This document shows, in pieces, positions 14,055 to 32,526 of a DNA stretch of 64,000 nt (position 1 is the first letter of the stretch; each line of letters opens with the position of its first letter). The notes beneath the pieces were generated by a model. The model did not search any database. It had not been told where the DNA came from and saw only the letters and a list, made by a program, of their open reading frames with translations. The position numbers were made by a program, and so were the translations under genes. This DNA comes from Nitrospinota bacterium (lineage in GTDB: Bacteria; Nitrospinota; Nitrospinia; Nitrospinales; VA-1), in assembly GCA_038108555.1 (NCBI GenBank), contig JAYNIA010000003.1, forward strand, positions 60,088 through 124,087. The letters are read 5' to 3'.

Positions 14055-14408
14055 TTATTTTAAAAATTTACTTATTTTCTTCAATCCCGCTTTGACATGT
14101 TCACGCAGGGCTTGCGGACTGATCTTCATTATTTTCGCTGCAAGATTCTTTTTAAGTCCGCCATAGAACACAAGGGAAACAGCAACAATCTGGCGGTCGG
14201 TCAGCCCCATACTGCCAATGTCGATGGATTGTTCTTTAAGATAGGAAAATTCTCCCTGAGGTTGGAATTCTAAACAATCACTATCCAACCCTTGAATATT
14301 GCTTAAAATTTCCAACTCATCTGAGGGAAAATACCTTAAATGATAATCCCCTTCTAGTTCCTTCAGGGACAATTCCTCTTTATTAATACCCAACCCTGAA
14401 TCAAACAT
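14055..14408 (-). CDS. sigma-70 region-4-like HTH protein (putative late/early regulator)
   Basis: C-terminus GLTDRQIVAVSLVFYGGLKKNLAAKIMKISPQALREHVKAGLKKI resembles sigma region 4. I prefer the internal start MFDSGL at 14408, whose ATG overlaps the upstream stop (ATGTTTGA). The track ORF extends to 14459. Confidence 0.5.
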   Translation of the reverse strand: MFDSGLGINKEELSLKELEGDYHLRYFPSDELEILSNIQGLDSDCLEFQPQGEFSYLKEQSIDIGSMGLTDRQIVAVSLVFYGGLKKNLAAKIMKISPQALREHVKAGLKKISKFLK

Positions 14409-14826
14409 TCCAGTACCTTTCGAAATATTTTTTAAATTGATGACCCTCATAAGCGACAAAATATGGAAACCATTTTGGTGGTCGTAATTCCGTCAGGTCT
14501 GATTTTAATCTCCCAGGTAGGGAGTCAGGTAATCCTGATATGGGGATTCCATTTATAAACATTTTGTCCTGGGAAACGGACACTCTCCAATATTCCCTCC
14601 CAATTTTAAAGTGAAACCACCACGCCTCTAGATCAATTTTGCCCTGGTATAAATAGTTACCGCAATACAAACACCTCCACCCCACTTGGGTTCGATACAA
14701 ACCACGCAAACCACATCCTCTTGATATTTCTTCCCCACTTTCGAGCAGGATTTTCTTTTTGAAACACTCTTTGAGATATTTTTCCTTTTTATGAAGCTTG
14801 TTATTCTTTATCTTGATTTTTGCCAT
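14401..14826 (-). CDS. hypothetical early protein (Cys-containing, 141 aa), divergent from the repressor
   Basis: ORF with a Lys-rich N-terminus and CG..(14)..CLYCG cysteines. Its position is equivalent to a cro/early gene. Confidence 0.45.
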   Translation of the reverse strand: MAKIKIKNNKLHKKEKYLKECFKKKILLESGEEISRGCGLRGLYRTQVGWRCLYCGNYLYQGKIDLEAWWFHFKIGREYWRVSVSQDKMFINGIPISGLPDSLPGRLKSDLTELRPPKWFPYFVAYEGHQFKKYFERYWNV

Positions 14827-14957
14827 AATCCATCTCCCAACTTTACAAACCCAAAATATATAAACATATCCAATTTTTTGGCTATATTAATTTAAAACTA
14901 TTAAATTTCATCCCGTACTATTCAAAATTATCCCCAAAAAATGCTATAATTGCTGAA

Positions 14958-15007
14958 ATATGTTTTGATAATGCCAATACCTAGGAGCATAAATCTTTAT
15001 CAAACAT
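14958..15007. promoter_or_regulatory. candidate operator / inverted repeat in the divergent switch region
   Basis: ATATGTTTTGATAA (14958-14971) and TTATCAAACAT (14997-15007) are near-complementary arms about 25 nt apart, inside the 297-bp divergent intergenic region. Confidence 0.3.
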
Positions 15008-15123
15008 CCTTTTTCCGAAACTTTAAAAGCACCCGTTTGAGCTTCGGAATTGGGACATTTTTCATTCAACCGAATATTAATATGAGACAATAGTCCCTAT
15101 TTGTCAAGTTTTTTTTAAAACTC

Positions 15124-16017
15124 ATGCCCATAAAAAATAGGATTTGGGAAAGAATAAAAGCATTACCGGGAAGTGATAATCTGGCAAAGTTTTGTCGGGA
15201 GGTAGGCTTAAATTATGAAAGTTATCGGAAAAGTTACCAGAGGAGTAATGGGCCTCCGGACTCCATAGCGTTGGAAAAAATAGCAAGCCATTTCGGATTG
15301 AATTTGAATTGGCTGATAACGGGTAAAGATTCGCTTAGTCCTATCAATCAAATCATCGGAAAAAAACTAAGGGAATATAGAAAGGCGAAAGGCTGGACCC
15401 TTGAGCAATTTGGGCAATATCTTGAAATGGTTCCGCAGATATTAAAAAATTACGAAAATGGAAGTTTGCCGGTTACTTTTGACTTAATAATTACCCTATC
15501 CGAAAAAATGAACATACCCGCCCACGAATTGATAAAAGAAGGGGGTGCGGCGTCTGTTCAAACCCCCGAGCTTAAAGTGTTTCAACCTGCAAGTATGTCG
15601 AATACACCGGCCATAAAAAGCGAAGATTATGTATCTATTCCCTTAACAGATTCCTCCATCGCAGCAGGCCAACCCATTATTCAGGAAAACAACATTGAAG
15701 ATTACGTTCTCCTCCACATTCGGGCTGCTGGAAAAAGAAATAATCTGGTTGCCAGTCGGGTAGATGGGGAATCAATGGAGCCCATGCTTCATTCAGGGGA
15801 TATTGTGGTTATAGATCGGGATGATAAAAAATGGTCCAAAAATAGAATTTTTGCAATATTCCATGAAGGGGGTTTGACCGCCAAATATTTAGAGAAACAA
15901 AAAAACCTGCTCCTGCTCAGGCCTATCAACCCCCTTTCCCAAGTGCAGATCATCAACCTGGATGAAAACCCAGATCCTGTTGTGGGTCGGGTTATTGGCG
16001 CGTGGAAAGAGTTATAA
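15124..16017 (+). CDS. phage repressor: two XRE-type HTH domains plus an S24 (LexA/CI-like) autopeptidase domain
   Basis: HTH1 ends ...LNLNWLITGK. HTH2 is IGKKLREYRKAKGWTLEQFGQYLEM. The S24 catalytic motif is VDGESMEP, with a later ...GGLTAKYLE lysine. Confidence 0.85.
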   Translation: MPIKNRIWERIKALPGSDNLAKFCREVGLNYESYRKSYQRSNGPPDSIALEKIASHFGLNLNWLITGKDSLSPINQIIGKKLREYRKAKGWTLEQFGQYLEMVPQILKNYENGSLPVTFDLIITLSEKMNIPAHELIKEGGAASVQTPELKVFQPASMSNTPAIKSEDYVSIPLTDSSIAAGQPIIQENNIEDYVLLHIRAAGKRNNLVASRVDGESMEPMLHSGDIVVIDRDDKKWSKNRIFAIFHEGGLTAKYLEKQKNLLLLRPINPLSQVQIINLDENPDPVVGRVIGAWKEL

Positions 16018-16078
16018 ATCCCTATCTATTTGCATTTTTTAGTTTTACAACAAATTCTGGTGGGGCATAATACTATTC

Positions 16079-16501
16079 ATGGAAGAAAAGAAAAAAGACA
16101 CAGGCCCCCCTCTCAAAATTTTACTGGCCGATGACACAGCGGTAAATGTTGCTTTAGCAACCAAATTAATGAAAAGAAGGGGTCATGACATTACCACGGT
16201 CGAAAATGGTCTTGAGGCCTTTGAAGCCTTTCAAAAGGATTCTTTCGATGTAATTCTTATGGATATCCACATGCCTGTTATGGATGGTTTGGAGTCCACC
16301 AAAAAAATAAGGGAATTCGAAACATCCAATCCTTCCAAGGCTCCCACACCTATTATCGCTATGACCGCAAATAACGAGCAAAGCGATCACGAAATCTATT
16401 TGAATAGTGGAATGAATGGAATCATTACCAAACCTTTAGAAATAAAAAAGGTTGTTTTCCAAATTCGGGAAATAATTGAAAAATTCCAGGCTCAATCCTG
16501 A
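16079..16501 (+). CDS. stand-alone response-regulator receiver (CheY-like) protein
   Basis: ILLADD...DVILMDIHMPVMDG...IIAMTA...ITKP receiver motifs, and no output domain. It has its own TTTACA-N16/17-(C)ATAAT promoter-like sequence at 16044-16072. Confidence 0.85.
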   Translation: MEEKKKDTGPPLKILLADDTAVNVALATKLMKRRGHDITTVENGLEAFEAFQKDSFDVILMDIHMPVMDGLESTKKIREFETSNPSKAPTPIIAMTANNEQSDHEIYLNSGMNGIITKPLEIKKVVFQIREIIEKFQAQS

Positions 16502-16517: not shown

Positions 16518-16979
16518 TTATATTGTTGCAATTGCTTCCTTTTGAAATAAGACTGTAACAATAATTTTATCCCCCGGATTACCGGAACCCACTTGTGAGA
16601 ATTTCAAACCCAATCGATCACTAATTGAAAATACAACTTTTGTAGAAAGCGAAGTTTTTTCATATTGATTCCCATCAGTCAATGTCGCTTCATTATTTTG
16701 TGCTATAGAGTTTTTTAATATATCAATCTTAAGGTCCTGCCCTGTGGGAGGATTGAGAGAAAAAATTCCTATGGCCCGAACTGCAATTGTTTCTTCAGGA
16801 ACAAATCCATCAAAAAAAACCGTTTCATCAATGGCAGGACCATGAACGGAAAGGGTAAAACAAAGGAGGCTCCCCAAATCGTCAACGGCATTGGCAAATT
16901 CTGTATATTCGGTCTCCCAGTTCAAATCCCCGGCACCGGGTATGGGAAGGTTTAAATTGTTGGTGAAAGTGTTAGCCAT
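16518..16979 (-). CDS. putative tail fibre / receptor-binding accessory protein
   Basis: Last gene of the structural operon. The N-terminus MANTFTNNLNLPIPGAGDLNWETEY resembles the T.NL.LP.P..GD..W start of many phage fibre proteins. This rests on memory-based pattern recognition only. Confidence 0.4.
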   Translation of the reverse strand: MANTFTNNLNLPIPGAGDLNWETEYTEFANAVDDLGSLLCFTLSVHGPAIDETVFFDGFVPEETIAVRAIGIFSLNPPTGQDLKIDILKNSIAQNNEATLTDGNQYEKTSLSTKVVFSISDRLGLKFSQVGSGNPGDKIIVTVLFQKEAIATI

Positions 16980-17014: not shown

Positions 17015-19909
17015 TTAATTTCTTTCCAGGCCTGCAAAACCACTGGTACCAAATTCCTGCAATCCAAACCCGGCATTGCCAATAAATCCACCCATTTGTC
17101 TGGCAAAAATTTTTATTGAATCCATCCTATTTTCAATTCCAGAACCCACGACTCTTTCCGATCCAAGAACAAGTGCCCTAATATTTTGAAGCTCATGAGT
17201 AGGTGGATTTATTTCAATGATGTCCCCTTTTTCTATTTCCATATTGTCTAGAAGCAGTGAAATTTCATAAACATCCCTGGGTTCCTTAAACTCATGTAAA
17301 TAAAAATTTCCAATATCTTTGGCCATGGGTTGGTCCCGGATCCAGTTAAAGTCAAACCCGTGGGGATTTTCTTTAATTCCAAATTTTTTTTGGGACTCCA
17401 TATCAAATAAATTTTCAACCGCCTGAAAATTATCCCCTACCCAGTTTCTTTTAAACTTGAGAACAATATAGTTAACAACATTACTAACCGGGTTACGCTT
17501 TGCCTTGAATCCAATTACCCCATTGGGATCAATTAAAACCATATTGTTGGGAATAATTTTGTTTATAGCCGTTTCTGTTGTAGAAAAATTTAAGGGGCGA
17601 AATAAAATTTTTGCCTGCCCAAGGTCCCAGTAAAAATAAGCCCGGCATTCCTTCCCCCATTGTTGCCACAACTCCTGGTAGGAAATCTTTTCCTTCAAAA
17701 TACCCGCAAAGGAGTAACCCGAATTTTCAAACAAAACCCCAGCCTGATCCATGAAAGTAGCATCAATGTTAGAGGAATCCAATCCCAACCCTTGAACCAG
17801 AGACCATTTATAAACATGGTCGGGACGCTCGATCAGCGAATTTTGGACTCCGGTAATGCTTCCCGACAAGTCATCTTTAACCCCTTCAATGGTAGCGGAG
17901 ACATTATCGGTAAATTCAATTCGTCTTCTTGCATATTCTATTTCGTAAGCCAGATGAACGATGAAAGCAGTTCTTCCATCACTTGATCCGTTATATTGAA
18001 TCTGACTCTCCCGGTTTTTAAACCAGGCCCAATCTCCATTCACATGGGAAGAAATATCAATTAAATCAACAACACTTCGGGTAGCTTTTTCAGCAGTAGA
18101 ATTTACAGAGGGACTTGAAGAGTGAGCGGTTATTTCTCCTGCCTTTGAAGTAAAAGTATTTGTTGCTTGTGAAGAAACCGAATCGGGGGTTGCCATGGTA
18201 ATAACCCGGGTGGCTGATCGAATATAAAAACTAATAAAAGTAGTATTGTGGCTAATTACAATTGTATTGCAGGCGTTATTAATGTTTCCCCCGGTGGTAT
18301 AGTTCTGAGCGGTTCCGCTTATGGACCAAAGCTGATAACCGAACGATCCGTTACATTGCGAAGTCGCAGATACTGCCTTGAAAGATCCACCTGATGCTGT
18401 TCCAGTCCATTCAAAAGCGATTCCATATTCTGCGGTATCCCAAGTACCCGGTCCCGGATCAGCGAAAGTAATAGTATGTGTTTGACCCGACGACAATGAT
18501 ATTACCTGCCCGCCTACACCGGATAATGCATTCTGAGTAATCTTTTGCGGGTTAGCTTCTGTATGTTGATGTTCCGGATCGCTGATAGGAAACCCCAATG
18601 TGTCCAAATGAGTATGAGTGATATCCGTCGTACCGCTTGCCACAATGACATCATCAACAGCGGGAGGTGACAAGGTTCCCACCTGACCGATACCAGAAAT
18701 ATGTGCAGTTAAACTATCATTGGGTAATTTTTCCTCAACAAAATGCTCGACCCTTAAAAATACTTTTCCAATTTCCCCAATTCTGGGCAAATCATCCGTT
18801 TGATTTAAAGAAAGTAAATTATTGTTCTGGTTGATTTTTGCATAATTTGTAGGGCTATTGGGTATGGCAGCATTTATGGGATCAACAGCATTATTACCCG
18901 TGCCTACCTGATCGTTTTGCACCTGAAGGAATTTGGTGTCAATGGAATCCGATTTTTTAGGTTTGGAGCTGAAAACCACTTCTCCCAGATTTACATCCGT
19001 CACATAATCCAGGGGGTCGGCAAGATGCCCATCCACTTTCACATTGGAAATTTGTTTTATGGGAAAGGCAGGGTCACTGAATAAATAGCGATGATCTGAG
19101 ACTTTTTCCAACACGGAATCATCCGCGTAATGAAACTCATTAATCCCACTGCATCCCAAAAACTGGGTTGAATTGATACTTGAATAATTAATTTCATCAT
19201 CATTGACTATTAAAGTCCCCGAAGGAGGGAAGTTCTCAGTCGAGGCCACGGTTAAAATCGTGCCTCCTGGAATAGCCACTGAAGTTAAAATTGTTTTTTG
19301 GGATTTTCGAACTAAAACGCCGGGGGCATTATCAATATTCCCAATAACAATAGGTTTGGTTTTTCCCAGTGAATTTTCCGGAGCATTTGGATAGTCACTC
19401 AGATTGATGGAATTCCCAATAATATTCGCCCCATAACTTTCTGAAATATCGATTAAATCAAAGGAGCAAATGGATTCATCAAAATTAACAGGGTCTCCTA
19501 TACGAGCCACGAAAATTTCTGCAAAATCTGAACTCGCTAAACCTTCACCATCAAACCATTGGTAAATCTTAACAATTGCCGATTCAGGAGGACGATGGCG
19601 GAACAAATTTGAAAACCTTTTACCCGAACCAATGAAATTTACAGGCGTATTGACAAGTTGAACTGTTAAACTACTTCCGGAATTGTTTGACAAAATATCG
19701 GAGGAAATCAGCCTGTCAATATTACCCATATCCTTTACTAAGGGAAACCAATCAACTCCATCGATATTTATTCCATCCCGATCTGTCAACCGCAGTTGCA
19801 GGGCTGGCAGCCCATTTATTTCTGGCCAATCTATTTGCATGAGATTAACCGGAGCATTCGCTTTTTTGTTTCGGGCTGCATTTAAACCTGTTGTAAAATC
19901 CGTTCTCAT
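17015..19909 (-). CDS. large tail / host-specificity protein (964 aa)
   Basis: Size and position after the small distal-tail genes. Two HxH motifs (THTH, HQH) lie at residues 431-449. Confidence 0.6.
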   Translation of the reverse strand: MRTDFTTGLNAARNKKANAPVNLMQIDWPEINGLPALQLRLTDRDGINIDGVDWFPLVKDMGNIDRLISSDILSNNSGSSLTVQLVNTPVNFIGSGKRFSNLFRHRPPESAIVKIYQWFDGEGLASSDFAEIFVARIGDPVNFDESICSFDLIDISESYGANIIGNSINLSDYPNAPENSLGKTKPIVIGNIDNAPGVLVRKSQKTILTSVAIPGGTILTVASTENFPPSGTLIVNDDEINYSSINSTQFLGCSGINEFHYADDSVLEKVSDHRYLFSDPAFPIKQISNVKVDGHLADPLDYVTDVNLGEVVFSSKPKKSDSIDTKFLQVQNDQVGTGNNAVDPINAAIPNSPTNYAKINQNNNLLSLNQTDDLPRIGEIGKVFLRVEHFVEEKLPNDSLTAHISGIGQVGTLSPPAVDDVIVASGTTDITHTHLDTLGFPISDPEHQHTEANPQKITQNALSGVGGQVISLSSGQTHTITFADPGPGTWDTAEYGIAFEWTGTASGGSFKAVSATSQCNGSFGYQLWSISGTAQNYTTGGNINNACNTIVISHNTTFISFYIRSATRVITMATPDSVSSQATNTFTSKAGEITAHSSSPSVNSTAEKATRSVVDLIDISSHVNGDWAWFKNRESQIQYNGSSDGRTAFIVHLAYEIEYARRRIEFTDNVSATIEGVKDDLSGSITGVQNSLIERPDHVYKWSLVQGLGLDSSNIDATFMDQAGVLFENSGYSFAGILKEKISYQELWQQWGKECRAYFYWDLGQAKILFRPLNFSTTETAINKIIPNNMVLIDPNGVIGFKAKRNPVSNVVNYIVLKFKRNWVGDNFQAVENLFDMESQKKFGIKENPHGFDFNWIRDQPMAKDIGNFYLHEFKEPRDVYEISLLLDNMEIEKGDIIEINPPTHELQNIRALVLGSERVVGSGIENRMDSIKIFARQMGGFIGNAGFGLQEFGTSGFAGLERN

Positions 19910-19934: not shown

Positions 19935-20252
19935 TCAATTTATTGCGTTATGGCCTAGTTTCATAAACTCGAGCTTGTCATCCAACGTCATGGACATGGA
20001 ATTGATTCTTTCATCTATATCTTCCCTTACACGTCTTTTCAGGATTTCCATCAATTTTTCTTTCCAATTTTCTTGTTGACGGAGCTGCATATAGAAATCT
20101 GATCGGAGGGTTATGGATTTAACAAATGCCAGGCTGCCATCCTTAAAAAATACACGTACTGGAAAATTTTGACGCTGACCTATTTCCTGAATTTCCTCTA
20201 CATCTATTTGAAACGAAAAATCCCCGGGAGTGCAGTTCTTCCAATCCAACAT
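19935..20252 (-). CDS. hypothetical tail-module protein (105 aa)
   Basis: ORF in operon context only. Confidence 0.45.
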   Translation of the reverse strand: MLDWKNCTPGDFSFQIDVEEIQEIGQRQNFPVRVFFKDGSLAFVKSITLRSDFYMQLRQQENWKEKLMEILKRRVREDIDERINSMSMTLDDKLEFMKLGHNAIN

Positions 20253-20261
20253 CTTTATCTC

Positions 20262-20642
20262 CTATTGTTTATGCAATTCTATCGAACCTGAGTACTTTCC
20301 AAATACAACCAACTGAAAATCAAAAGCGTTCATCCATCTGACCGTGTGGAGGTTAGCCTCCCTATCTTCAAATTCAAAAAGCTCAAATGACTTTTTAACC
20401 GTTTCAAAAAAACTCAATGCAGCATTCCGTTCGCTTTGACTTATATTGCTGAATAAAAACAGGAACGTTTCACGCTTTACCCCTTTTTCCTGAATATAGA
20501 TAGTCCCACCAGAAGTAACAGCCTTAATCTGTTCAGGAAAGTCAACCGGTTCAATGGCTGGATAATCGGGCATTTTTGTAGGAACCCATTGAGCTATCGG
20601 GGATACTTTTGTAGGAAAATAAAAACCAAAACTCATGAACAA
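20262..20642 (-). CDS. putative distal tail protein (126 aa)
   Basis: Position immediately after the tape-measure candidate. Confidence 0.4.
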   Translation of the reverse strand: MFMSFGFYFPTKVSPIAQWVPTKMPDYPAIEPVDFPEQIKAVTSGGTIYIQEKGVKRETFLFLFSNISQSERNAALSFFETVKKSFELFEFEDREANLHTVRWMNAFDFQLVVFGKYSGSIELHKQ

Positions 20643-20734: not shown

Positions 20735-21499
20735 TTATTTTGATCTTCTTCTTTCAAGGCGGCGCAACTCATCCTGCAATTGAACGGCAAGCTGGCGAAA
20801 ATTCTGTCGACTCATGTTGGAAGGGCTCACAGAATCAGGAAGATTTAAATTGATATTTACATTTTTAATTGCCATTCCGGTGGTGTTACCCAACCTTCTT
20901 TCTTCAGCTTGGGTTTTATTTAGAACGGCTTCATCTTTGTATATTATTGCCAACATATCCCTGGGAACGCGGTCAATCCCAGTGGAAAACGCCTTTAATG
21001 AGCCAAAAGTATCAAATCCCCCGGGGTTGACTGAAGTCCCATCAAAGGCACCTGGGTTTGCTGAAGATTCGTCTTTATCTATATCAAAATCACTATCGTT
21101 TGAACCTTTAGAGCCAATTTTTTTAACTTTTATTTTTTGAATAATGGGCTTTGAAAAAGTTTTTTCGATTTTCTTTCGAATTTCCAAGGCCTCTTCTGTT
21201 GCTTTATCTACCAATTCAAGGTGTAGCAAAAATGGATTTTGAGCTTGAAAACTCCTCAATAACACTTCGATCTCCCTCAATTGATCGCGAACATTTGGAG
21301 GTAAAATTTGAAACTCAATTGGTTCGGCGTTTTCTAGATCTTTTAATAAATCAGCAATTACTTTAAATCCTTTATCATTTTGAACGCGATTAATCCCTTC
21401 CAATGCCTTTTTGTAGTTTTCAAGGGATTTTTGGGCTGATTCAGTAAACTGATCCTCAAACCTAACAACAATTTTAGTGTTTACAGTTGTTGAAACCAT
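20735..21499 (-). CDS. candidate (unusually short) tape-measure protein, 254 aa
   Basis: Position after two small chaperone-like ORFs. Helix-rich N-terminal half and a Gly/Asn-rich centre. No other long ORF lies between the tail tube candidate and the distal tail genes. Confidence 0.35.
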   Translation of the reverse strand: MVSTTVNTKIVVRFEDQFTESAQKSLENYKKALEGINRVQNDKGFKVIADLLKDLENAEPIEFQILPPNVRDQLREIEVLLRSFQAQNPFLLHLELVDKATEEALEIRKKIEKTFSKPIIQKIKVKKIGSKGSNDSDFDIDKDESSANPGAFDGTSVNPGGFDTFGSLKAFSTGIDRVPRDMLAIIYKDEAVLNKTQAEERRLGNTTGMAIKNVNINLNLPDSVSPSNMSRQNFRQLAVQLQDELRRLERRRSK

Positions 21500-21525: not shown

Positions 21526-21795
21526 TTAATACGGTTGCGATTTATTTAATCGAAAATTATCCATAAAAGCCATTGCTTTCCATTCAAAAATACTTAGATC
21601 ATTCTTTTCGAAAGGATATCCAGCCTTTTTTAGCAAGTACATAGTTTCCAGAGTCCCGACCCATGTTCGAAATTCATGAGGGTAGTTTTCAAGAATTTTT
21701 TGTGCCGGATGATTCAGGATATTCCATTCGGGGTTTTCAGTTTCTTCATAAACACGGCTTAAAAATTTCTGATACGCTACTTCCAGTTCCGGCAC
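21526..21795 (-). CDS. putative tail assembly chaperone (89 aa)
   Basis: Position only. Confidence 0.35.
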   Translation of the reverse strand: MPELEVAYQKFLSRVYEETENPEWNILNHPAQKILENYPHEFRTWVGTLETMYLLKKAGYPFEKNDLSIFEWKAMAFMDNFRLNKSQPY

Positions 21796-21815
21796 ATTTT
21801 CCTGAAAGTAGCCTA

Positions 21816-22211
21816 CTAGTTTTTTAAAACAGCATTTTCCATTTTTCCATTCACCCCCTCAAAAACCAGAGCTGCAGCATGCTTAAAGGATGGCAACACA
21901 AATTTTTTCCAATCAGGGGTTTTGGGGGTTAAAGGTTTTTCCATGCCCTTAACTGGGTCTGTAAAAACGGCTTCTCCAATATTGCCCTCCTTATCCTTTA
22001 CTTTTATATCCAGCAGCAACCGGTCAATAAAATCGATGCGCGCTGAGGAAGAGTGATCTTCCATCAGGTTTCCAGAGGTTCCAAATTTAAATCTCGATCT
22101 TAGAAAATTACAATATTCTTCCGATGTTGAGTTTCTTAGAATCAGAAGGACTTTAATTTCACCATAAGGGATTTCTATGTTTACAGTCCCGGGGTTAAGA
22201 TTTACTTTCAT
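21816..22211 (-). CDS. putative tail assembly chaperone (131 aa)
   Basis: Position only. Confidence 0.35.
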   Translation of the reverse strand: MKVNLNPGTVNIEIPYGEIKVLLILRNSTSEEYCNFLRSRFKFGTSGNLMEDHSSSARIDFIDRLLLDIKVKDKEGNIGEAVFTDPVKGMEKPLTPKTPDWKKFVLPSFKHAAALVFEGVNGKMENAVLKN

Positions 22212-23800: not shown

Positions 23801-23817
23801 AAATTTTCCTCCAAAAG

Positions 23818-24944: not shown

Positions 24945-24959
24945 AATTTGTTGATCAAC

Positions 24960-25154
24960 TTATTTTCCGGTTTTTGTTCTTTTATTTTCTGGAGCTTTTC
25001 CCAGATTTTTAGATTGAATCTTTTTTGCCCAGCGTTTGCGAAGAAAAACCTTGGCCAACTCTTCTGGAAGATCAACGGTATCTTCTGCGCAATAGGTGAA
25101 AACAGAGATACCATCGGGGGAACCCTGGCGAGTTTTCAACATTTTAATTTTCAT
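24960..25154 (-). CDS. small hypothetical head-module protein (64 aa)
   Basis: ORF fills the operon gap. No homology evidence. Confidence 0.3.
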   Translation of the reverse strand: MKIKMLKTRQGSPDGISVFTYCAEDTVDLPEELAKVFLRKRWAKKIQSKNLGKAPENKRTKTGK

Positions 25155-25215
25155 AAAGAATCCAAAAGATGAGGGTAATTCCTTTCCCAGAAAATGGGAA
25201 AGGAACTAAGGAATA

Positions 25216-25593
25216 TTAATTAACAGGTGCCAAGTGAGGAATGCCGCGAATTATCATCGCGGCGACCTGGGCACCGGTTGTAGCGCCGACAACGGTTAAC
25301 ACCGCTCGCAGGTAGCGTTTGCTTCCCTTGTATCCAACGCGCTGATTGGTATTAGAAACCAGGTCCACCAAAGACCCTTCCTGGTCATTGGCATTGACAT
25401 CGTTCCAGTTGGAATTATCATCGGATTCCTGAATCTTTGGTGTATGAGTACCATCCGTGACCGTACCAACACTAAAAACTATGGCCGAGGCCCGGAAATC
25501 CCTGATATCGACCCCGGCACCATTTTCATCTGCAATATAGTCATCAGGATCAATTGAATTGATCGCATCAAAATTGTTTTTCATATCTTTCAT
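25216..25593 (-). CDS. hypothetical capsid-associated protein (125 aa)
   Basis: Immediately downstream of the major capsid gene. Acidic. Confidence 0.45.
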   Translation of the reverse strand: MKDMKNNFDAINSIDPDDYIADENGAGVDIRDFRASAIVFSVGTVTDGTHTPKIQESDDNSNWNDVNANDQEGSLVDLVSNTNQRVGYKGSKRYLRAVLTVVGATTGAQVAAMIIRGIPHLAPVN

Positions 25594-25639: not shown

Positions 25640-26836
25640 TTAGGCAGCAGTTTTCTGAATTGCGAAGGCTTCGAAATTCGTTACATCGCCCCCGGTGCGC
25701 TTCGTTGTATAAAATAAAACGAAGGGTTTTGAACTAAAGGGATCTCGAAGAACCCGCAGTCCCATTCGGTCCACAATGGTATAAGCCTGACTGAAATCAC
25801 CGAAGGCAACGGACAAAGAATTTGGGGCAACCTGAGGCATATCCTCCATGCGTTCAATGGCATGACCCAATAAAGTTTGAGGTTCGCCTTCCTGAAATCC
25901 TGGCTGCCAAATATATGAACCGCTGGAATCTTTGAGTTTGGAAACTTCTTCGATCGCACTTCGAGACATCAACCATTTGGCGTTGGGTACGTAGGGACTT
26001 TTTAAAGCATAAAACAAAGTTCGCAATCCGTCGGCGGTCAAGGAGCTGGCATCTCCTGTATTGATCTGTTGAACTTCCCCTGGATTATTTGTTCCCCCTG
26101 CATAAGTGAGAATTCCCCTTGGTTTTCCAACTCCGTCACCGTTGATATAAGAAGCGTTTTCTATGCGTGACATTTTGTCCGCAATCTTCATGGATAACCA
26201 CATTTCAACATCAATTCGGGAATCATCTAACAAGGTTTGCGTGGCCTTTGGCATAGCATATAGTTCGTGGACCGGAATCCGACGAACTCCAATTTTTGGG
26301 GTATTGGTTTCGGTTCGTGCGGCCCGTTCACTGGTCCACCCGCTGTCTGCTTCGTTTAGATCTTCCGGGATTTCAAGTGCATCCGTGGAGATCGTTTCCA
26401 CCGTTGCAATATTACGCATGGGCGAAGTTTCAAAAACTTTTTGAATGGCATGCTCTGAAATTTCCGGGGTCATCCAATAACCTCCATCCGGATCGCTATC
26501 AGAGGAAAGTAATTTCACCTCCTCTGCAGACAATAGTCCCTCCCCTTTACGCAGATAATTCGTAATGGCCTGTTTTCTGGTTTGAGAAAGTGGATCCGAA
26601 TTTTTTGTTTCATCCATAGCTATTCCCGGACGACTCAATTTAGTTTCAACTTTCTCTATCCGCTCCTTAACCTCGCTCAGATTTTGGATTTCCTTTGCAA
26701 TCCGGTTGACTTGTTCCTCTAAAACAGGGTCGGCATATCCCTTTTTCTGAATTTCAGATAGACGTTGGTCATTCTTTACCCTATGTTCCAAAAATGCCTG
26801 GTTCAGCTCTTCAACAAGTTGCTTTATTTCTTCCAT
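25640..26836 (-). CDS. major capsid protein, HK97 family
   Basis: 398 aa. N-terminal coiled-coil delta-like domain, then a pattern typical of HK97-fold MCPs. AAGGAGAG RBS. Gene order is portal-protease-capsid. Confidence 0.85.
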   Translation of the reverse strand: MEEIKQLVEELNQAFLEHRVKNDQRLSEIQKKGYADPVLEEQVNRIAKEIQNLSEVKERIEKVETKLSRPGIAMDETKNSDPLSQTRKQAITNYLRKGEGLLSAEEVKLLSSDSDPDGGYWMTPEISEHAIQKVFETSPMRNIATVETISTDALEIPEDLNEADSGWTSERAARTETNTPKIGVRRIPVHELYAMPKATQTLLDDSRIDVEMWLSMKIADKMSRIENASYINGDGVGKPRGILTYAGGTNNPGEVQQINTGDASSLTADGLRTLFYALKSPYVPNAKWLMSRSAIEEVSKLKDSSGSYIWQPGFQEGEPQTLLGHAIERMEDMPQVAPNSLSVAFGDFSQAYTIVDRMGLRVLRDPFSSKPFVLFYTTKRTGGDVTNFEAFAIQKTAA

Positions 26837-26956
26837 ATTGAACTCTCCTTAAAAAAGAAACCCCCGCCAGACCTTCCATGAAATGCCATATATAATAATG
26901 AACCTTTTCATTATTTTTGGCCCAAACGAGGGGAATAATAGTTAATTTCTAATAGA

Positions 26957-27643
26957 TTATGAGGCTTTTACTGTACTCAATAACTGGTGAAGGGAGGCCC
27001 TTAAAACTTCAATTTCCCTGGAGTTTTCGGCTTCAACAAAGTGGGGTTTTCCCGGCCCATTTTTGCTGTTAACAAGAAGGGATTTTAAGTTGTGGATAGC
27101 TAATTCTGTTTGTTTGTGATCCATTCCAACCGCATTTTTCAAAAACTGGCCGATCATTTCTTTTTTCCCTTTGACACTGATAACCCCTGCGTGTCGATTC
27201 ATGGGAAAAGTAACAACGCTATATTCGAGAAGTTGGATCTCTTTTAATCGGCGGACTTCAGGACGGTGGTGATCCGCCTCTTCTTTGATTACGCGAAAGC
27301 CAATAGACAACCCCGTTTTCCCGCCAATATTTTGAGCCATTTTCATGAGACTATGGCGTTCCCTAGCTGCGGTCACATTAAGGTCAAGTAAACCTCTAAC
27401 AAATAAACCGCGGTCATCCTCATAGGCTTCTACGTTCCAACCAATCTGGCGGGTGGGATCGTGGTGGTCGAGAATAGGGAATCGGCCCTTATTCTCTGTC
27501 AGTGTTTTTTTATAAGCGCCTTTTTCCACCACGTCGCCACCCAGATCAATAGATCCAAAGGTAGAGGCATACCCACAAAACTCACCAGAATCATTTATTG
27601 CATCCATTTTGAATGGAAACGATTTAAACTCTTTCATAGTCAC
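26957..27643 (-). CDS. prohead serine protease, HK97 family
   Basis: FCGYASTFGSIDLGGDVVEKGAYKKTL...ILDHHD pattern. Confidence 0.85.
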   Translation of the reverse strand: MTMKEFKSFPFKMDAINDSGEFCGYASTFGSIDLGGDVVEKGAYKKTLTENKGRFPILDHHDPTRQIGWNVEAYEDDRGLFVRGLLDLNVTAARERHSLMKMAQNIGGKTGLSIGFRVIKEEADHHRPEVRRLKEIQLLEYSVVTFPMNRHAGVISVKGKKEMIGQFLKNAVGMDHKQTELAIHNLKSLLVNSKNGPGKPHFVEAENSREIEVLRASLHQLLSTVKAS

Positions 27644-27648
27644 CTTCT

Positions 27649-28833
27649 TTAAATAGAAAAGTTTTGCAAACGGGGAACCAATTTATCCCCTCCAGGCACA
27701 TCATCGAATCCGACCATCCGGCGTTTTTCATTCAAAGTTAAAAAATCACTTTGATTCACACGATTCCATAAAGCCTCCTGGTCTTCAGACAAGGCTTCAA
27801 TACCATCTTTATTGAAATCCAAGAAAAGGTCTTTACCGAATCGGGGAACCAGCCAATTGTTAAGCGCATCGCGTAATCGATTCAAGAAAGGACAAACGAC
27901 TTCTGTGTACAAAGCTTTCCGTGCTTCTTTACGGTTTTGATAAGTTGCCGGGCCCAAACCTATCAACTCGGGAGGTACGTTATAAACCTGAGCAACCTGC
28001 AGGGCGCTCATTTTTAATCCTTCAATCCAATCCATATCTTTTGGAGAGATACCCAACTCTTTCCATTCCAGATCCTGTTCCAATAACAAAGGGTCCCTGG
28101 CGTTATTCACTCCTTGTATCTGCCGACGCATTTCTGATTTCAATCGTTCAAACTGTTCATCGGTCAACCGTTGCTTGCAGGTCAAAGCCCCGGAGGGAAC
28201 CGCCGCATTTTGTAGTAGCGACGCATTCCATTTGTCACCATTGTTTAATTTATCAATGGCTAAAGCTGCTACCTGTATTGGTGATAAACCATACCAATCG
28301 TCCAAAGGATGAAACAATTTGAGATGAAGAATCCGTTCCGGCGAAAATTTTACCTTCCGTCCGGATACCGTATACTCGTACCCACCTACAAAATGTATGG
28401 GATCAGGAATCACCCTCATTCGATCTGGACGCAAGGTATATAGTTCTTTGGGAGGGCTATTATGAGGTCCGATACATTCCAGATAAGCGTTGCCGGACAA
28501 ATAGAAAAAGCTGGCAACCGATTCCACCCATTCAAATTTTCCCTGCAATGGATTAGGCCTTTCCATTAGATCTAGAATAGGATGCTGCAAAACTTCCCGG
28601 CGTTCGCCATTAGGCAAATTACGAAATAGCAACCAAGGAACACCCGCAACAGCTGAGGAAATTTCTTTCACACAAGAAAATAGAACACTATTTTGTGTGA
28701 ACCCTTCTTTGGCTAAAATTTCGTAATCCGTCTTGGGGGAAACTCCGTGTCCTCCAGGCAACCACAACGTCATGGCGCGGGTGGCGGTACTACCTTTTTT
28801 TCTGATTCTTTTGAACCAATCTATTAATTTCAT
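27649..28833 (-). CDS. portal protein, HK97 family
   Basis: 394 aa. Position and overall pattern. Confidence 0.85.
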   Translation of the reverse strand: MKLIDWFKRIRKKGSTATRAMTLWLPGGHGVSPKTDYEILAKEGFTQNSVLFSCVKEISSAVAGVPWLLFRNLPNGERREVLQHPILDLMERPNPLQGKFEWVESVASFFYLSGNAYLECIGPHNSPPKELYTLRPDRMRVIPDPIHFVGGYEYTVSGRKVKFSPERILHLKLFHPLDDWYGLSPIQVAALAIDKLNNGDKWNASLLQNAAVPSGALTCKQRLTDEQFERLKSEMRRQIQGVNNARDPLLLEQDLEWKELGISPKDMDWIEGLKMSALQVAQVYNVPPELIGLGPATYQNRKEARKALYTEVVCPFLNRLRDALNNWLVPRFGKDLFLDFNKDGIEALSEDQEALWNRVNQSDFLTLNEKRRMVGFDDVPGGDKLVPRLQNFSI

Positions 28834-28882: not shown

Positions 28883-29668
28883 TTAAATAACAGCAGCTAT
28901 ACCGGTTGGATTTGCAAACGATGAGCTGGTGTATTTTGTGTTGGGAAATTTATGTTGAGGACGCCCTTCTCTATCAATTAAAACAATCCAATCTTCTGGC
29001 TGATAGTAGGTGACCCAATAAAACCCGTTCGAGGGATCATAGGTAATCCCTTGCAACGAAGTAGGAACTGGATCCAGCTTTTCCAGGGTAACCGAATGGA
29101 TAAAATTCATACCCAGATCAAAAACAAACAGGGAGTTAAAAAAATTATCGGTAATGATAATTCGTTGAAGTACCGGATCGATACACAAATCCTGAGGGCT
29201 GGCCAATCCTGATGTTGATAGATCAAAAGTCTGGATCAAACTGCCATTTCTTTGGAGATGATAAAGGTTGAAGGATGTGAGTCCGTCCGATATTAGCCAA
29301 AGAGTAAAATCCCATGGATCAATGCAAATACCTTCAATTTGAGTTGCGGAAGGGTCGAATTGATCAATCCCAAAAGAACTTATGGGAGAACCATTTTGGG
29401 AATCAATATTCCAAACACGAATATCGGTCGATGTTCCGCTGCTATTATTTTCGGTAGAAACCCATAGAGAATTATCCGAAGGGTCCAATGCCAATCCATC
29501 AGGAGGTGGATTGACAGGAGAAAAAACGCTGGAGGGGATAGAGTTTCCTATTTCATTTCCCCATTTATCGACCTTAAAAATCTTTCTTGCATCGCTTGAA
29601 ATTATTAAGGATCCGTTTAAAAATCTATTATTTGATACAATGGGTGACAGGCTTGAAGATTTAATCAT
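28883..29668 (-). CDS. NHL/SMP-30-like beta-propeller repeat protein inserted between terminase and portal
   Basis: About five or six repeats of the G(L/I).(L/I/Y)DP......W/I type (GLALDPSDNSLWV, GICIDPWDFTLWL, DLCIDPVLQRIII, GITYDPSNGFYWV). The ATG overlaps the upstream stop (TAATG). Confidence 0.6.
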   Translation of the reverse strand: MIKSSSLSPIVSNNRFLNGSLIISSDARKIFKVDKWGNEIGNSIPSSVFSPVNPPPDGLALDPSDNSLWVSTENNSSGTSTDIRVWNIDSQNGSPISSFGIDQFDPSATQIEGICIDPWDFTLWLISDGLTSFNLYHLQRNGSLIQTFDLSTSGLASPQDLCIDPVLQRIIITDNFFNSLFVFDLGMNFIHSVTLEKLDPVPTSLQGITYDPSNGFYWVTYYQPEDWIVLIDREGRPQHKFPNTKYTSSSFANPTGIAAVI

Positions 29669-29964
29669 TACTCACCTGCCAAATAATCGCCCGCAGATGA
29701 CCCCGCTGAATTGGTACCCACTCGCACCCAAAAACCTTTTGCTTCAAACCCAACGGGACAATTTTTAAAAATTACAATTTCTCCCTCAACATTCTGCACT
29801 TCAAGATCACCTGCAACTCCACAATAAATAACGCGACAAACCCTGGAAAGAGGGTTTACTGCATGTGGCGTTACTGTTTCCCAATGCACAGGTGGACTTT
29901 CCAATCCCTGCTGGGAATATTTATCTTTCCAACGGCTGGACGCTAACAATATGTCTTGGGGCAT
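29668..29964 (-). CDS. 98-aa protein, possibly head-spike-base-like (RcGTA rcc01079-type). Tentative.
   Basis: GLESPPVHWETVTP....L....RVIYCGVAGDLEVQNVEGEIVIFKNCPVG matches my recollection of the spike-base family consensus (gl.sP....itP.d..L....al.vG.aGdl.v....G..v.f.nv.aG). Not verified. Confidence 0.35.
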   Translation of the reverse strand: MPQDILLASSRWKDKYSQQGLESPPVHWETVTPHAVNPLSRVCRVIYCGVAGDLEVQNVEGEIVIFKNCPVGFEAKGFWVRVGTNSAGSSAGDYLAGE

Positions 29965-29992: not shown

Positions 29993-31585
29993 TCAGGTTA
30001 ATCTTCTAATTCGTGGACCAGACAACCCTGAGTTAATCAAATTAAAAAACATTTCCAGAGCATCGGGTCCGTCATCGTGATTGGCTTTGGGGAAATATTT
30101 CAATTGATCCAACAACAAGGTCTGGTTTTTTCGAAATCGAATCAATCCATTTTTAATATGAGGTTGCAATTTTGAAATCCTCAAAATTTTATCGTTAATG
30201 GGTCTCACCCCTTCGACTGGAGGATAAATTTTCCTTCGTGCTCCTTCTTTAATTACCTGATCTTTAAACAATTGTTGAAACTGTACTTCCTCAATGGCGA
30301 TTTTTTCAAAGTGATACTTTTTTTGATATTCGAACAGGGTTTCCATTATTGAATCAGGATGGCGTTTTTCAATATCAGCTTGAATAATATCGATGATGCC
30401 ATCGGGGTTTACACAACCTACTAATATTGCAGATGGGTCTGCTTTTTTAGATGCTGACCCCATGGAAGGATCAACCGCGCAGTAGAAATGACTGTTTTTG
30501 TCTAAAAAAATTGGTTCCGGAATAAACCGAAACCATTCTTCCTGAAAAAGACAATCATCAGGGTTAACCGGTTCATTTTGCTTCTCTGAATCAAAATAGG
30601 CAGGTCCATCGGAAACTCGCATCGTCATCAAAAAGTAATACGATTCTGCTTCGGGCCAGAGAACTTTTGTTCCCTCTAACATTTCGATTTTATGTTTATC
30701 AAAAAACCTTTTTGCTCTGTTCTCCGCATCAACAACTCTGGAAGTAAAAAGTGATTCCCATTTTTCCCAAAGTTTTGAAGAAGACCATTTGATTACAGCT
30801 TTCCACTTTTTACCATGCCAACCCGGCCTGACTAATAATCTTGAAAGTAAAGAGTCGTAATGAAGAATTGTTCCCACCACTATGAAAACGGTAGAGCGAC
30901 CTCCAATTTTCATTAGGGCTTTAAAAAACCATTTACGATCTTTTTCACGTTGGTCAGGGGAATCAATATTTTCATCATCTTCCAGGTCATCGCAAATAAC
31001 AAGATCAGGTCTCCGGTTTCCATGGCGTGCGCCTCGAAACCGTTTTCTTTTTCCACAACTGCGAACAGCTACTCCATTTTTCGTAACAATTTTTGTGGCC
31101 TTCCAAGTTCTACCCGAACCACAAACCTCTGGGAAGTCCTCTATCAACCTTTCATTCGCTTCAAGTTCAACTTTAATCTGCTCCAGAAGCTCTTCTGATT
31201 GGTCGGAGGTATCAGAAACTAAAACAATAAATTTTTTTCTTAATCCGACAATGCACCAAAGGGGTAAGATTAAAGAAGAGAGTGTTGATTTAGCATTGCC
31301 GCGGGGAGCGGCCAAAGCTTCTTTACTTCCTTTGCCGGAAACTTGCGATTCAATTATTAGCTGGCCAAATCGTTTGAACATTTCCTCATGCATTTGGGAG
31401 CATTTTTCGGTCAGGTGATGCGGGAAATAATGTCTGGCAAAAAACTTCAAGTCTTTTAGAGCTTTTTCTTTGTGTTTTTCTTTTTGTTTATGGCTCCTTT
31501 TATTGAAGGGTTTGAGCTTTTCTTTAATTTTATTTCCTGTTGCCTCTTTTGGCCTTTTGCTTCTAATTCCTGGTAATCCCACCAT
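29993..31585 (-). CDS. terL: terminase large subunit
   Basis: Walker A-like AAPRGNAKST, Walker B LVICDDLEDDE, and C-terminal nuclease motif HDDGPDALE. The start is uncertain, either the ATG at 31585 or the TTG at 31450. Confidence 0.85.
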   Translation of the reverse strand: MVGLPGIRSKRPKEATGNKIKEKLKPFNKRSHKQKEKHKEKALKDLKFFARHYFPHHLTEKCSQMHEEMFKRFGQLIIESQVSGKGSKEALAAPRGNAKSTLSSLILPLWCIVGLRKKFIVLVSDTSDQSEELLEQIKVELEANERLIEDFPEVCGSGRTWKATKIVTKNGVAVRSCGKRKRFRGARHGNRRPDLVICDDLEDDENIDSPDQREKDRKWFFKALMKIGGRSTVFIVVGTILHYDSLLSRLLVRPGWHGKKWKAVIKWSSSKLWEKWESLFTSRVVDAENRAKRFFDKHKIEMLEGTKVLWPEAESYYFLMTMRVSDGPAYFDSEKQNEPVNPDDCLFQEEWFRFIPEPIFLDKNSHFYCAVDPSMGSASKKADPSAILVGCVNPDGIIDIIQADIEKRHPDSIMETLFEYQKKYHFEKIAIEEVQFQQLFKDQVIKEGARRKIYPPVEGVRPINDKILRISKLQPHIKNGLIRFRKNQTLLLDQLKYFPKANHDDGPDALEMFFNLINSGLSGPRIRRLT

Positions 31586-31914
31586 TGCTGGATAACTTTT
31601 TCTTCAATTTTTTCGACGTGATCCCCTATTAAGTGAGCTGCTGAAACTTCTTTGTTTTCAGCTAAATAAACCGCAACTGTTTGAAGAGTTTCTGAAAGCA
31701 GTTGCATGGGGTCTATCTTCCCGGTTTGGATTTTAAGTTTGAGTAAATCCTGGATTTTTCCAATATATGCACAATAAACACGGTGGTTTTTCAAATCGTC
31801 AGGTGATTTTTTAATCAGTTTCTGAACTACCTTTTTATTTTCCTCCAACTCATTTATCAGCCTTGATAAATCCGATAATTCACCATTTAAAACTTTAAGC
31901 GATCTTGTTGTCAC
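31456..31914 (-). CDS. putative terminase small subunit (by position only)
   Basis: 152 aa, helical, with a Lys-rich tail. Overlaps the annotated terL ORF by 130 nt. Confidence 0.3.
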   Translation of the reverse strand: MTTRSLKVLNGELSDLSRLINELEENKKVVQKLIKKSPDDLKNHRVYCAYIGKIQDLLKLKIQTGKIDPMQLLSETLQTVAVYLAENKEVSAAHLIGDHVEKIEEKVIQQWWDYQELEAKGQKRQQEIKLKKSSNPSIKGAINKKKNTKKKL

Positions 31915-32260
31915 TTACATTCAAGGCTCCTACAATTTGATTTACCGATTTATTTAGTTCATTAAGCTGTTTAAAAATCCTTGAAATAAGTCCCTCCGTT
32001 TTACCCACGGCAATATAAAAAGCTTTTTTTTCTACATATTGCTCAAAGTTGTATTTTTGATCGCTTTGCCTGGTTTTTTCCAATTCACGAAGGAGGTTTT
32101 CCATTTCTTCCAGATTTTGTTTTAGATCATTCAACCTTCTATTATTTTCTCCAATCATCCAGCGAACAAACCATCCAAGGGTTCCCAAAGTAAATAATGC
32201 GAAAAAGGTCAACCAGGGGGTTAAAGTTCTAAATAGCTCCAGGGACATATGGAATCTCAA
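31895..32260 (-). CDS. membrane-anchored coiled-coil protein (i-spanin-like architecture)
   Basis: N-terminal TM LTPWLTFFALFTLGTLGWFVRWMI, followed by a coiled-coil (NDLKQNLEEMENLLRELEKTRQ). Confidence 0.4.
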   Translation of the reverse strand: MRFHMSLELFRTLTPWLTFFALFTLGTLGWFVRWMIGENNRRLNDLKQNLEEMENLLRELEKTRQSDQKYNFEQYVEKKAFYIAVGKTEGLISRIFKQLNELNKSVNQIVGALNVSDNKIA

Positions 32261-32292
32261 AAAACGGAGTGTTATTAATAGATTTTTTTCAA

Positions 32293-32526
32293 TTAGGAGT
32301 GAGGAAAATTTACTTTTTTCACGACCTCATGGATTACCTCTTCCTGATTATTTTTTATAGCAGCCCTTAAAGTTGAAAGCCCCACTGCCTCCAAAACCCA
32401 TGTCATCGAGTCACTGGATACAAACTCATGAAGGGAAATATTACCGGTGGAAAAATTTAAAAATGATATGAAAAGCATCAAAACTGAAGTGAGATAAGTC
32501 TTTCTTCCCTTTAACCAGTCCATCAT
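32293..32526 (-). CDS. small membrane protein, holin-like
   Basis: 77 aa. KGRKTYLTSVLMLFISFLNF TM segment plus a second amphipathic segment. First gene of the operon. Confidence 0.4.
   Translation of the reverse strand: MMDWLKGRKTYLTSVLMLFISFLNFSTGNISLHEFVSSDSMTWVLEAVGLSTLRAAIKNNQEEVIHEVVKKVNFPHS

Follow-up and report, generated by a model that had tools for sequence, protein, structure and literature searches.

What a compact cluster of phage head and tail genes is doing beside the replication initiator gene of a bacterial chromosome is the question raised by a 64,000-nucleotide stretch of DNA (contig JAYNIA010000003.1 of assembly GCA_038108555.1; hereafter the window, meaning the whole stretch that was analysed) from a metagenome-assembled genome (MAG) of the phylum Nitrospinota. 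The cluster occupies 14.05-32.53 kb of the window, i.e., ~18.5 kb between the conserved host genes etfB and dnaA, and an initial annotation had described it as a structural gene set that represents either a gene transfer agent (GTA)-like particle producer or, failing that, a recently decayed prophage. The reading that we favour, with a little more confidence than doubt, is that of a siphovirus domesticated long ago and turned into a viriform or GTA-like particle factory, which was fixed at the etfB-dnaA site in an ancestor of those Nitrospinota that are at the level of the Nitrospinaceae and was passed on vertically from then on. We regard the cluster as a strong candidate for a gene transfer agent that is new and evolved independently, and infer gene-transfer activity for it.

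The open reading frames (ORFs) of the window were searched with hidden Markov models (HMMs) from Pfam, PHROGs and NCBIfam, and selected proteins were modelled with AlphaFold2 (AF2) and compared using Foldseek. Related loci (numbered with the prefix L) were collected with a profile of the tail tube protein in one genome per GTDB species, which returned 25 loci, almost all of them from Nitrospinota, while homologues of the large terminase (TerL) and of the tail hub added four long contigs, Ca. Nitrohelix vancouverensis CP048620 and the isolate Nitrospina watsonii OX336137 (L043). An independent scan of metagenomes with a TerL profile gave 62 loci. Many of these loci come from MAG contigs, and the same locus may in some cases have been counted in more than one collection.

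Dozens of Nitrospinota genomes, with DnaA identities to the window down to 60%, have the cluster in the interval from etfB to dnaA-gyrB-gyrA, and the gene order was identical throughout the compared loci. Its terminase side adjoins dnaA-gyrB in 12 genome loci (L012, L014, L015, L017, L020, L023, L025, L026, L030-L033), its regulator side adjoins etfB in eight (L008, L014, L016-L018, L030, L032, L043), and both flanks are visible in L014, L017, L030 and L032; the N. watsonii locus ends 579 bp before the end of the chromosome record, consistent with dnaA at the record start. Among the metagenome contigs with a TerL identity of at least 56% and at least 2.5 kb of upstream sequence, all 18 carried dnaA upstream, usually with gyrB, and the TerL relatives at 53% identity or less had none of the other element genes. 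Exceptions to the fixed site were L035 (Nitrospina sp. MSP), which lacks TerL and has other upstream genes, and the short contig L071, on which no dnaA lies upstream.

Distances between the element proteins follow those of DnaA, with Mantel r values of 0.81 for TerL, 0.91 for the portal, 0.87 for the capsid, 0.97 for the tube, 0.95 for the hub and 0.92 for the repressor (p = 2e-4 to 4e-3). The nearest neighbours were identical for DnaA and TerL, and since the slopes against DnaA are ~0.85 for portal, capsid and tube, these three proteins evolve slightly slower than DnaA. The ratio of nonsynonymous to synonymous substitution rates (dN/dS) was 0.04-0.26 in all 24 element genes and 0.031 in DnaA when L014 was compared with L017 (dS 0.3-0.9), and similar in other locus pairs, with the qualification that NG86 is a pairwise estimate and not a full codon model and that dS is saturated for most pairs. 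The cluster is vertically inherited with the host lineage, its structural genes are under purifying selection, and the insertion predates the split of lineages in which DnaA is only 60% identical. Locus, Mantel correlations and dN/dS thus clearly favour a domesticated or GTA-like element in the choice that the initial annotation had posed between vertical conservation with purifying selection and patchy presence. The pair L013 and L015 showed mosaic divergence: dS was 0.02-0.1 in the regulators and TerL and 0.3-0.4 in portal and tail genes, with nucleotide identities of 96-100% at both ends of the element and 89-92% in its middle, which indicates recent recombination within the cluster.

An insertion older than the 60% split, together with the maintenance of all genes by selection, refutes the recently decayed prophage to which the initial annotation had fallen back. 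The same holds for an inert prophage remnant, kept either because deletions beside dnaA and oriC would be harmful or because the repressor and the receiver were co-opted by the host. The essential locus, the several decayed copies and the regulators that outlast the structural genes in L032 speak for such a remnant; however, none of the 24 ORFs is disrupted across lineages with DnaA identities as low as 60%, every dN/dS lies in the above range, portal, capsid and tube change at about 0.85 times the DnaA rate, neutral sequence would have been erased at dS > 1, and large natural deletions in L012, L030 and L032 show that the site tolerates them. This explanation was already disfavoured, and we consider it scarcely credible.

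What has been conserved is a complete HK97-like siphovirus module (HK97-fold capsid, S78 protease, PF04860 portal, tube, tape measure, hub), arranged in a single late operon of ~16 kb on the minus strand that extends from 32526 to 16518, from a holin-like gene to the hub gene and p153. All ORFs named in the initial annotation were present at their positions, and its TerL, portal, protease, capsid, adaptor, neck, tube, repressor and receiver were confirmed by HMM matches. In the order of transcription, the head and packaging genes are the following.

31456-31914, minus strand: p152, candidate small terminase (TerS) by position; no family match
29993-31585, minus strand: TerL, large terminase (phrog_38, E 4e-115; dN/dS 0.048)
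28883-29964, minus strand: NHL-repeat propeller of 261 residues (NHL, E 2.6e-6) and p98
27649-28833, minus strand: portal (PF04860, E 9e-81; dN/dS 0.046)
26957-27643, minus strand: S78 prohead protease (PF04586, E 5e-24)
25640-26836, minus strand: HK97-type major capsid protein (PF05065, E 2e-79; TIGR01554; dN/dS 0.055)
within 24309-25593, together with the adaptor, minus strand: p64 and p125, the latter head-associated (phrog_5707, E 1.5e-22)
24309-24944, minus strand: head-tail adaptor of 211 residues (TIGR02215, E 6e-27; PF05135; phrog_442, E 9e-21)

The block of capsid, protease and portal (25640-28833) has dN/dS values of 0.046-0.083. The candidate p152 lies upstream of TerL in all loci at 30-67% identity, and the two genes overlap by ~130 nt in different frames (31456-31585); an overlap of ~125-130 nt is also kept in distant loci (L023 3023-3152, L033 9803-9926), and the part of TerL inside it is a basic N-terminal extension. 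Between TerL and portal lies a slot of changing content: the NHL propeller and p98, restricted to the closest clade (L005, L011, L018, L044, L046, L048), form a clade-specific cargo, and Laminin_G, tape-measure-like paralogues or SocA are found there elsewhere. The tape-measure-like paralogues between TerL and portal were seen in L018 (80-1144 and 3190-4296), L020-L022, L033 (11602-12111) and L059-L063.

The tail genes continue the same operon.

23818-24300, minus strand: neck160, Neck1/HK97 gp10-like tail completion protein (phrog_5, E 8e-10)
within 23330-24300, minus strand: p156, candidate tail terminator, conserved as is neck160
22229-23272, minus strand: tail tube protein of 347 residues, fused double-domain (PF18906, E 6e-12; AF2 pLDDT 86; dN/dS 0.061)
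21526-22211, minus strand: p89 and p131, candidate tail assembly chaperones by their position between tube and tape measure
20735-21499, minus strand: tmp254, tape measure protein of 254 residues, its C-terminal region homologous to a tape measure protein
19935-20642, minus strand: p105 and p126, small tail-tip proteins; no family match; dN/dS 0.13-0.22
17015-19909, minus strand: p964, baseplate hub or tip attachment protein of the T5 pb3/lambda gpJ class (AF2 pLDDT 82.6)
16518-16979, minus strand: p153, last late gene; no family match; dN/dS 0.18

The tube model matches the tube protein of phage P74-26 (8ed0_A; Foldseek E 1.6e-15, TM 0.71) and T5 pb6, and p964 matches T5 pb3 (7zqp_b, E 2e-14) as well as the proteins of DT57C, lambda (gpJ) and T1. 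No sheath gene of the kind found in contractile myovirus tails is present in the cluster, its tube being of the siphovirus P74-26/T5 class and its hub of the pb3 class. As in the T5 and P74-26 tails, a fused double-domain tube protein, from which trimeric rings are expected, is combined with a pb3-type hub fold, whereas sequence identity to these tails is only 9-14% and the tape measure is far shorter. The chaperone candidates p89 and p131 are kept at 28-80% identity and occur in the lambda-like prophage L028 too; p105 and p126 always adjoin the hub gene, including in variants that lack the tube gene, and may be distal-tail or gpM-like proteins; p153 is kept downstream of the hub gene at 33-77% identity and is probably a tail-tip accessory or fibre protein.

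The C-terminal motif region of tmp254 matches the 609-residue tape measure of L028/L034, which carries PF09718 (Tape_meas_lam_C). The initial annotation had counted a short tape measure among the GTA-like traits, and the 254 residues are indeed seen in the window; the trait is allele-specific, given that the orthologues have 330-385 residues with a hydrophobic middle segment that is missing in the window and in L008, and tmp254 is a shortened deletion allele. A short tape measure as a property of the family was ruled out by these lengths and by those of related phages (~610 residues). From the rule of 0.15 nm of tail per tape-measure residue, a tail of ~40-60 nm is predicted. The interval next to the tape measure gene is a second cargo slot, between p89 and the tape measure, where relatives carry opposite-strand genes for Zn-ribbon membrane proteins. 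Arrays of such small Zn-ribbon and transmembrane genes adjoin the tape measure gene in L005 (11772-12919), L006, L011, L018 (2587-3162) and L036 (7603-7902), and no other part of the element differs as strongly when close relatives are compared (53-69% nucleotide identity vs. 85-98% in the background). In L007 and L009 a second set of p131, p89 and tape measure genes lies upstream of the tube gene, an unusual place for a tape measure.

The functions of a mobile, replicating phage are missing from this inventory. No match to integrase, recombinase, transposase, replication or lysin families was obtained with Pfam, PHROGs or NCBIfam for any ORF between etfB and dnaA, in agreement with the initial annotation, and the precomputed Pfam tables of nine related loci contained no integrase or replication families. 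A search for direct and inverted repeats over 13.9-33.1 kb, proposed earlier as a check for att sites, yielded only short AT-rich chance repeats and none at the boundaries. No tRNA gene flanks the element, as had been noted, the nearest being at 41.8 kb, and no Rfam match falls inside it. A supposed integrase at the tRNA-Asn gene at 46.7 kb was discarded, as the overlapping ORF is hemB (ALAD). The set that would mark an intact prophage, i.e., an integrase with att sites, a replication module and a complete lysis cassette, is not present in the window.

No complete phage with this cluster was found among GenBank phages, where TerL and capsid alone gave matches (39-51% identity), or in IMG/VR, whose entries are fragments of the same chromosomal cluster, and searches of 50,697 phage records gave no match for either tube or hub. 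None of the findings that would have refuted the initial annotation turned up in the window: integrase and replication modules, att repeats and complete phage relatives were all lacking. The closest GenBank phages by TerL are the Mu-like Pseudomonas phages of the DMS3, MP38 and D3112 group, at 41% identity; Mu-like phages package by headful from integrated copies. The closest phage relatives of the capsid protein (39-51% identity) have genomes of 40-62 kb. Capsid sequence searches matched metagenome-derived contigs only, tube homologues belonged to Nitrospinota, Nitrospinae or Nitrospina in every case bearing a name, and the 99 sequence homologues of p964 are essentially all from Nitrospinota.

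Probable true phage relatives are L027 and L028/L034, lambda-type contigs with a gpA terminase, a lambda portal, an S49 or fused protease-capsid and a tape measure of 609-614 residues. These lambda-like (pro)phages of Nitrospinota share p156, tube, p131, p89 and tape measure with the element at 28-64% identity, and L027 also shares hub, p126, p105, p153 and the M15 endolysin; they lie at other loci, L028/L034 being a second copy in Nitrospinaceae OFTM191. L027 stems from a bin labelled Alphaproteobacteria OFTM68 and is probably mis-binned.

On this evidence a still-autonomous temperate phage, one with unrecognised or host-encoded excision and replication that always integrates beside dnaA, is very unlikely. 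A CI-like repressor with an early/late switch, a capsid lineage that fits genomes of ~40 kb and the flagging of element fragments as viral by the IMG/VR pipeline would suit such a phage; against it stand the lack of any recombinase or replication gene in nine annotated loci and of att repeats, element distances that follow DnaA with the same nearest neighbours, IMG/VR contigs that are just fragments of the chromosomal cluster, and the mere 18.5 kb available between two conserved host genes.

The fixed position itself is distinctive. By homology to the annotated loci L032 and L018, the gene order in the window is parB-parA-rsmG-etfA-etfB, the element, and dnaA-gyrB-gyrA, which has the appearance of a classical origin region; dnaA is followed directly by gyrB and gyrA, without dnaN or recF (32904-39658). 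The longest dnaA ORF starts at 32904, while orthologues of 448-455 residues favour the ATG at 32983, so that this is probably the start codon, close to the position given before (32982). The element has the GC content of its flanks. The cumulative GC skew has its minimum at 34,636, at most 2 kb from the start of the late operon and the terminase genes, and because of this the element can be placed, as the initial annotation had placed it, beside the origin on the left replichore and transcribed co-directionally with replication. DnaA boxes (TTATCCACA, TTWTNCACA, at most one mismatch) were not clustered in the spacers between p77 and dnaA and between dnaA and gyrB, where their counts equal chance; the origin position is therefore based on GC skew and gene orientation.

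How the late operon would be controlled can be read from a set of regulators at its far end and from a leader at its near end.

15124-16017, plus strand: rep297, CI/LexA-like repressor with two XRE-type helix-turn-helix domains and an S24 autopeptidase (PF00717, E 1.4e-17; HTH_19; HTH_3; phrog_4, E 2e-37)
16079-16501, plus strand: rec140, receiver-only response regulator (PF00072, E 3.4e-25; dN/dS 0.062)
14827-15123, no strand: divergent switch region of 297 bp between rep297-rec140 and p141-sig134, from a promoter scan
14401-14826, minus strand: p141, Cys-rich early protein; no family match; dN/dS 0.09
14055-14459, minus strand: sig134, sigma-70 region-4-like helix-turn-helix protein (phrog_3512 'sigma factor', E 8.9e-5; NF004113 over residues 85-122, E 2.5e-4; dN/dS 0.064)
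32559-32612, minus strand: conserved late-operon leader with a 10-bp GC hairpin (32559-32581) and the palindrome CTTTGTGCAAAG (32601-32612)

The repressor is kept at 52-85% identity in all loci with a dN/dS of 0.066, and its alignment to E. coli LexA shows a conserved AAG cleavage site, the GxSM serine and the TxK lysine; a cleavage site of the LexA type would link the element to the RecA/SOS system of the host. The receiver rec140 is in an operon with the repressor (46-93% identity across loci), and p141 (43-71% identity) is kept even in loci without structural genes. The earlier assignment of sig134 as sigma region-4-like did find a match, although a weak one (E 9e-5 and 2.5e-4); its orthologues (44-74% identity) occupy the same position next to etfB as the second gene of the early operon, and we consider it a candidate activator of the late operon. 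In the switch region, the palindrome GACAATAG-tcc-CTATTTGTC at 15086-15105 overlaps the -35 hexamer of a promoter-like site on the minus strand, is unique in the window (0 expected by chance) and is a candidate operator. The leader lies 40-100 nt upstream of the first late gene, and its hairpin and TGCGCA box are conserved in position in eight loci (window, L005, L011, L013-L015, L017, L031); the hairpin stems vary in sequence with 6 of 14 pairs changed on both sides, i.e., they covary, and the palindrome CTTTGTGCAAAG is unique in the window. As the hairpin has no U-tail in the sense direction it is not a plain terminator, and the leader may be the site of an activator, act in antitermination or be related to a pac element. 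Some relatives carry a further, variable large gene between the repressor and p141/sig134, absent from the window, which encodes a coiled-coil protein of 400-750 residues with a weak AAA_23 match (L022, L024, L035, L036 downstream of the repressor, L030 18417-19622, L032 13742-15280).

The first late genes complete the operon.

31895-32526, minus strand: p121 (N-terminal transmembrane segment and coiled coil) and p77 (two hydrophobic segments); weak matches

The labels TerS, holin and spanin in the initial annotation derive from size, position and transmembrane or coiled-coil character, and we retain them as candidates. For p121 and p77 a lysis or holin-type role is supported because in several clades a gene for a 130-residue Peptidase_M15_3 protein (E 1.9e-17) stands directly before them at the head of the late operon (L020-L023, L027, L030, L032, L033, L060-L064, L066, L075, L079). 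Neither the window nor any other member of its clade (TerL identity of at least 72%) has this gene, and the M15 protein had no tblastn match in the 64-kb window, a negative that for other lysin types extends to the scanned ORFs. The expectation of lysis genes elsewhere thus fits the window's clade, which has no recognisable endolysin, and not the clades that keep Peptidase_M15_3 at the operon head, which also rules out the lack of a lysis enzyme as a family trait.

Taken together, these parts suggest the following course of events for a domesticated particle factory. The repressor rep297 would keep the divergent early operon of p141 and sig134 off until DNA damage activates RecA and rep297 cleaves itself, whereupon sig134 would activate the one late operon, 16 kb long, at its conserved leader adjoining dnaA. 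HK97-type heads would be assembled with short non-contractile tails that have a P74-26/T5-type tube of trimeric rings, a tape measure of 250-385 residues and a pb3/gpJ-type hub. A headful-type terminase would then have to act on the unexcised chromosome, because integrase, excisionase and replication genes are missing, and the particles would carry host DNA, either in general or from inside the element into the origin-proximal region. The benefit would be gene transfer between kin.

Much of this control resembles PBSX of Bacillus subtilis, a fixed defective prophage without self-transfer that is governed by the Xre/Xpf repressor and sigma-like factor pair and has one late operon, a contractile tail, its own amidase and holins, and a distribution restricted to a species group. 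The element shares the layout of cleavable repressor, sigma-like gene (of weak assignment) and single late operon for terminase, head, tail and lysis functions, and induction of the SOS type would be expected in it as well; unlike PBSX it is of siphovirus type, has no detected sequence homology to it and spans lineages down to 60% DnaA identity. The likeness raises the alternative of a killer particle of the PBSX kind, or of a module for altruistic lysis set off by the SOS response, in which DNA transfer is incidental or absent and the cluster is kept since induced cells release tailed particles or lyse, harming competitors or helping kin. This is an alternative of some weight, if an unlikely one. 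The regulatory layout is PBSX-like, and in L030 and L032, where most of the structural genes are gone, selection still maintains the lysis genes, TerL and the regulators (dN/dS 0.10-0.27 for the regulators, 0.12 for TerL). However, head, portal, protease and terminase, none of which a pure killer tail or lysis module needs, are as constrained as the tail (dN/dS 0.05), and in the window's clade the endolysin was lost and all else kept.

The variants of the cluster show which parts can be spared. In N. watsonii (L043) and L031 a six-gene block, neck160-p156-tube-p131-p89-tape measure, is absent, and head, adaptor, p126, p105 and hub are intact (dN/dS 0.13-0.24, dS saturated), which suggests that the particle is podovirus-like or that the tube module was gained or lost in particular lineages; the full variant is that of the Ca. 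Nitrohelix vancouverensis enrichment.

Several observations weigh against a domesticated, DNA-transferring particle factory. L030 retains the head module alone of the structural genes, L032 only the lysis genes, TerL and a portal stub, L012 has transposases of the IS3 family (rve) and the IS110 family at 5480-7809 in place of the head module beside remaining tail genes and regulators, and L035 is missing TerL; because of these losses the element is dispensable in some lineages, and large deletions at the site are tolerated (L012, L030, L032). The deletion allele of the window might encode an impaired tape measure. The window's clade has no recognisable endolysin for the release of particles. 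The capsid kin come from phages of 40-62 kb, so that the head may hold the whole 18.5-kb cluster and the criterion of a GTA capacity smaller than the locus may fail. Lastly, the cluster has its own phage-type repressor instead of obvious host regulators.

A more specific version of the domesticated particle factory, which we put forward as a doubtful possibility, is an origin-anchored engine of lateral transduction, with the initiation of chromosomal replication acting as its replication module. Packaging, initiated within the terminase genes or close by, would proceed in the direction of late transcription; a first headful would take up the whole 18.5-kb element, and those that follow would carry out of the cell, at high frequency, the part of the left replichore next to the origin (etfAB, rsmG, parAB and beyond). 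Such an engine would explain the conserved position beside oriC, the coexistence of decayed and intact copies through repair by incoming copies, and the mosaic dS. Known counterparts are BaGTA of Bartonella with its run-off replication and lateral transduction by non-excising prophages of S. aureus and Salmonella (P22), which rely on in-situ packaging by a headful terminase. The element would resemble them in tying particle production to a locally amplified or in-situ packaged chromosomal region and would differ in that the source of amplification is oriC itself, as it has no phage replication module.

A comparison with RcGTA of the Alphaproteobacteria (Rhodogtaviriformidae) bears most directly on the GTA-like label. 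Both are chromosomal, structural-only head-tail clusters of 15-18 kb without integrase or replication genes, both are vertically inherited under purifying selection, and both have an HK97-type capsid, an S78 protease, a portal, a TIGR02215-type adaptor and a hub of the gpJ class; in the window's clade the lack of an endolysin within the cluster is a further likeness. Unlike RcGTA, the element has a TerL of the DMS3/Mu-like lineage and a fused double-domain tube, has its own S24 repressor, receiver and sigma-like genes where RcGTA is under CtrA/GafA control, and sits origin-proximal at a fixed site in a different host phylum, with capsid kin from 40-62-kb phages. Membership in the RcGTA family was ruled out, as no GTA-specific families of NCBIfam or Pfam matched, only the generic HK97-type head families and TIGR02215, and p126, p105, p964, p153, the tape measure and the chaperones had no match to families of the RcGTA g12-g15 type. 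The RcGTA likeness drawn in the initial annotation therefore stands for a GTA-like domesticated element and fails for homology. The cluster is independent in origin from RcGTA, and would be GTA-like in its working, PBSX-like in its layout and homologous to neither family.

No description of the element was found in the searched literature on gene transfer agents, prophages and terminases of Nitrospina and Nitrospinae. To our knowledge, few independently domesticated head-tail particle systems have been recognised (RcGTA, BaGTA, VSH-1, Dd1, VTA and PBSX-like elements), and the present cluster would be a further one, from a separate phylum. Among the nitrite oxidisers of the ocean the Nitrospinota are dominant, and they form small, slow-growing populations whose routes of gene exchange are essentially unknown. 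As the cluster is present in the cultured N. watsonii (tube-less) and in the Ca. Nitrohelix vancouverensis enrichment (full), the question is directly testable. The fixed site beside dnaA, the own SOS-type switch and the tube-less, head-only and lysis-only variants would offer a comparative series from which to learn what selection keeps of a domesticated phage, and for what reason. The IMG/VR entries are also a warning for viromics, since prophage callers flag this host locus as viral.

Two features of the window lie outside the cluster. At 52738-54249 lie three tandem genes whose products, of 133-138 residues each, are cyclic-nucleotide-binding proteins with a single domain. At 49000-50758 a gene for a histidine-kinase-type ATPase with a DUF4325 (STAS-like) domain adjoins a staphylococcal-nuclease-like gene, a pair that may be a defence or stress module.

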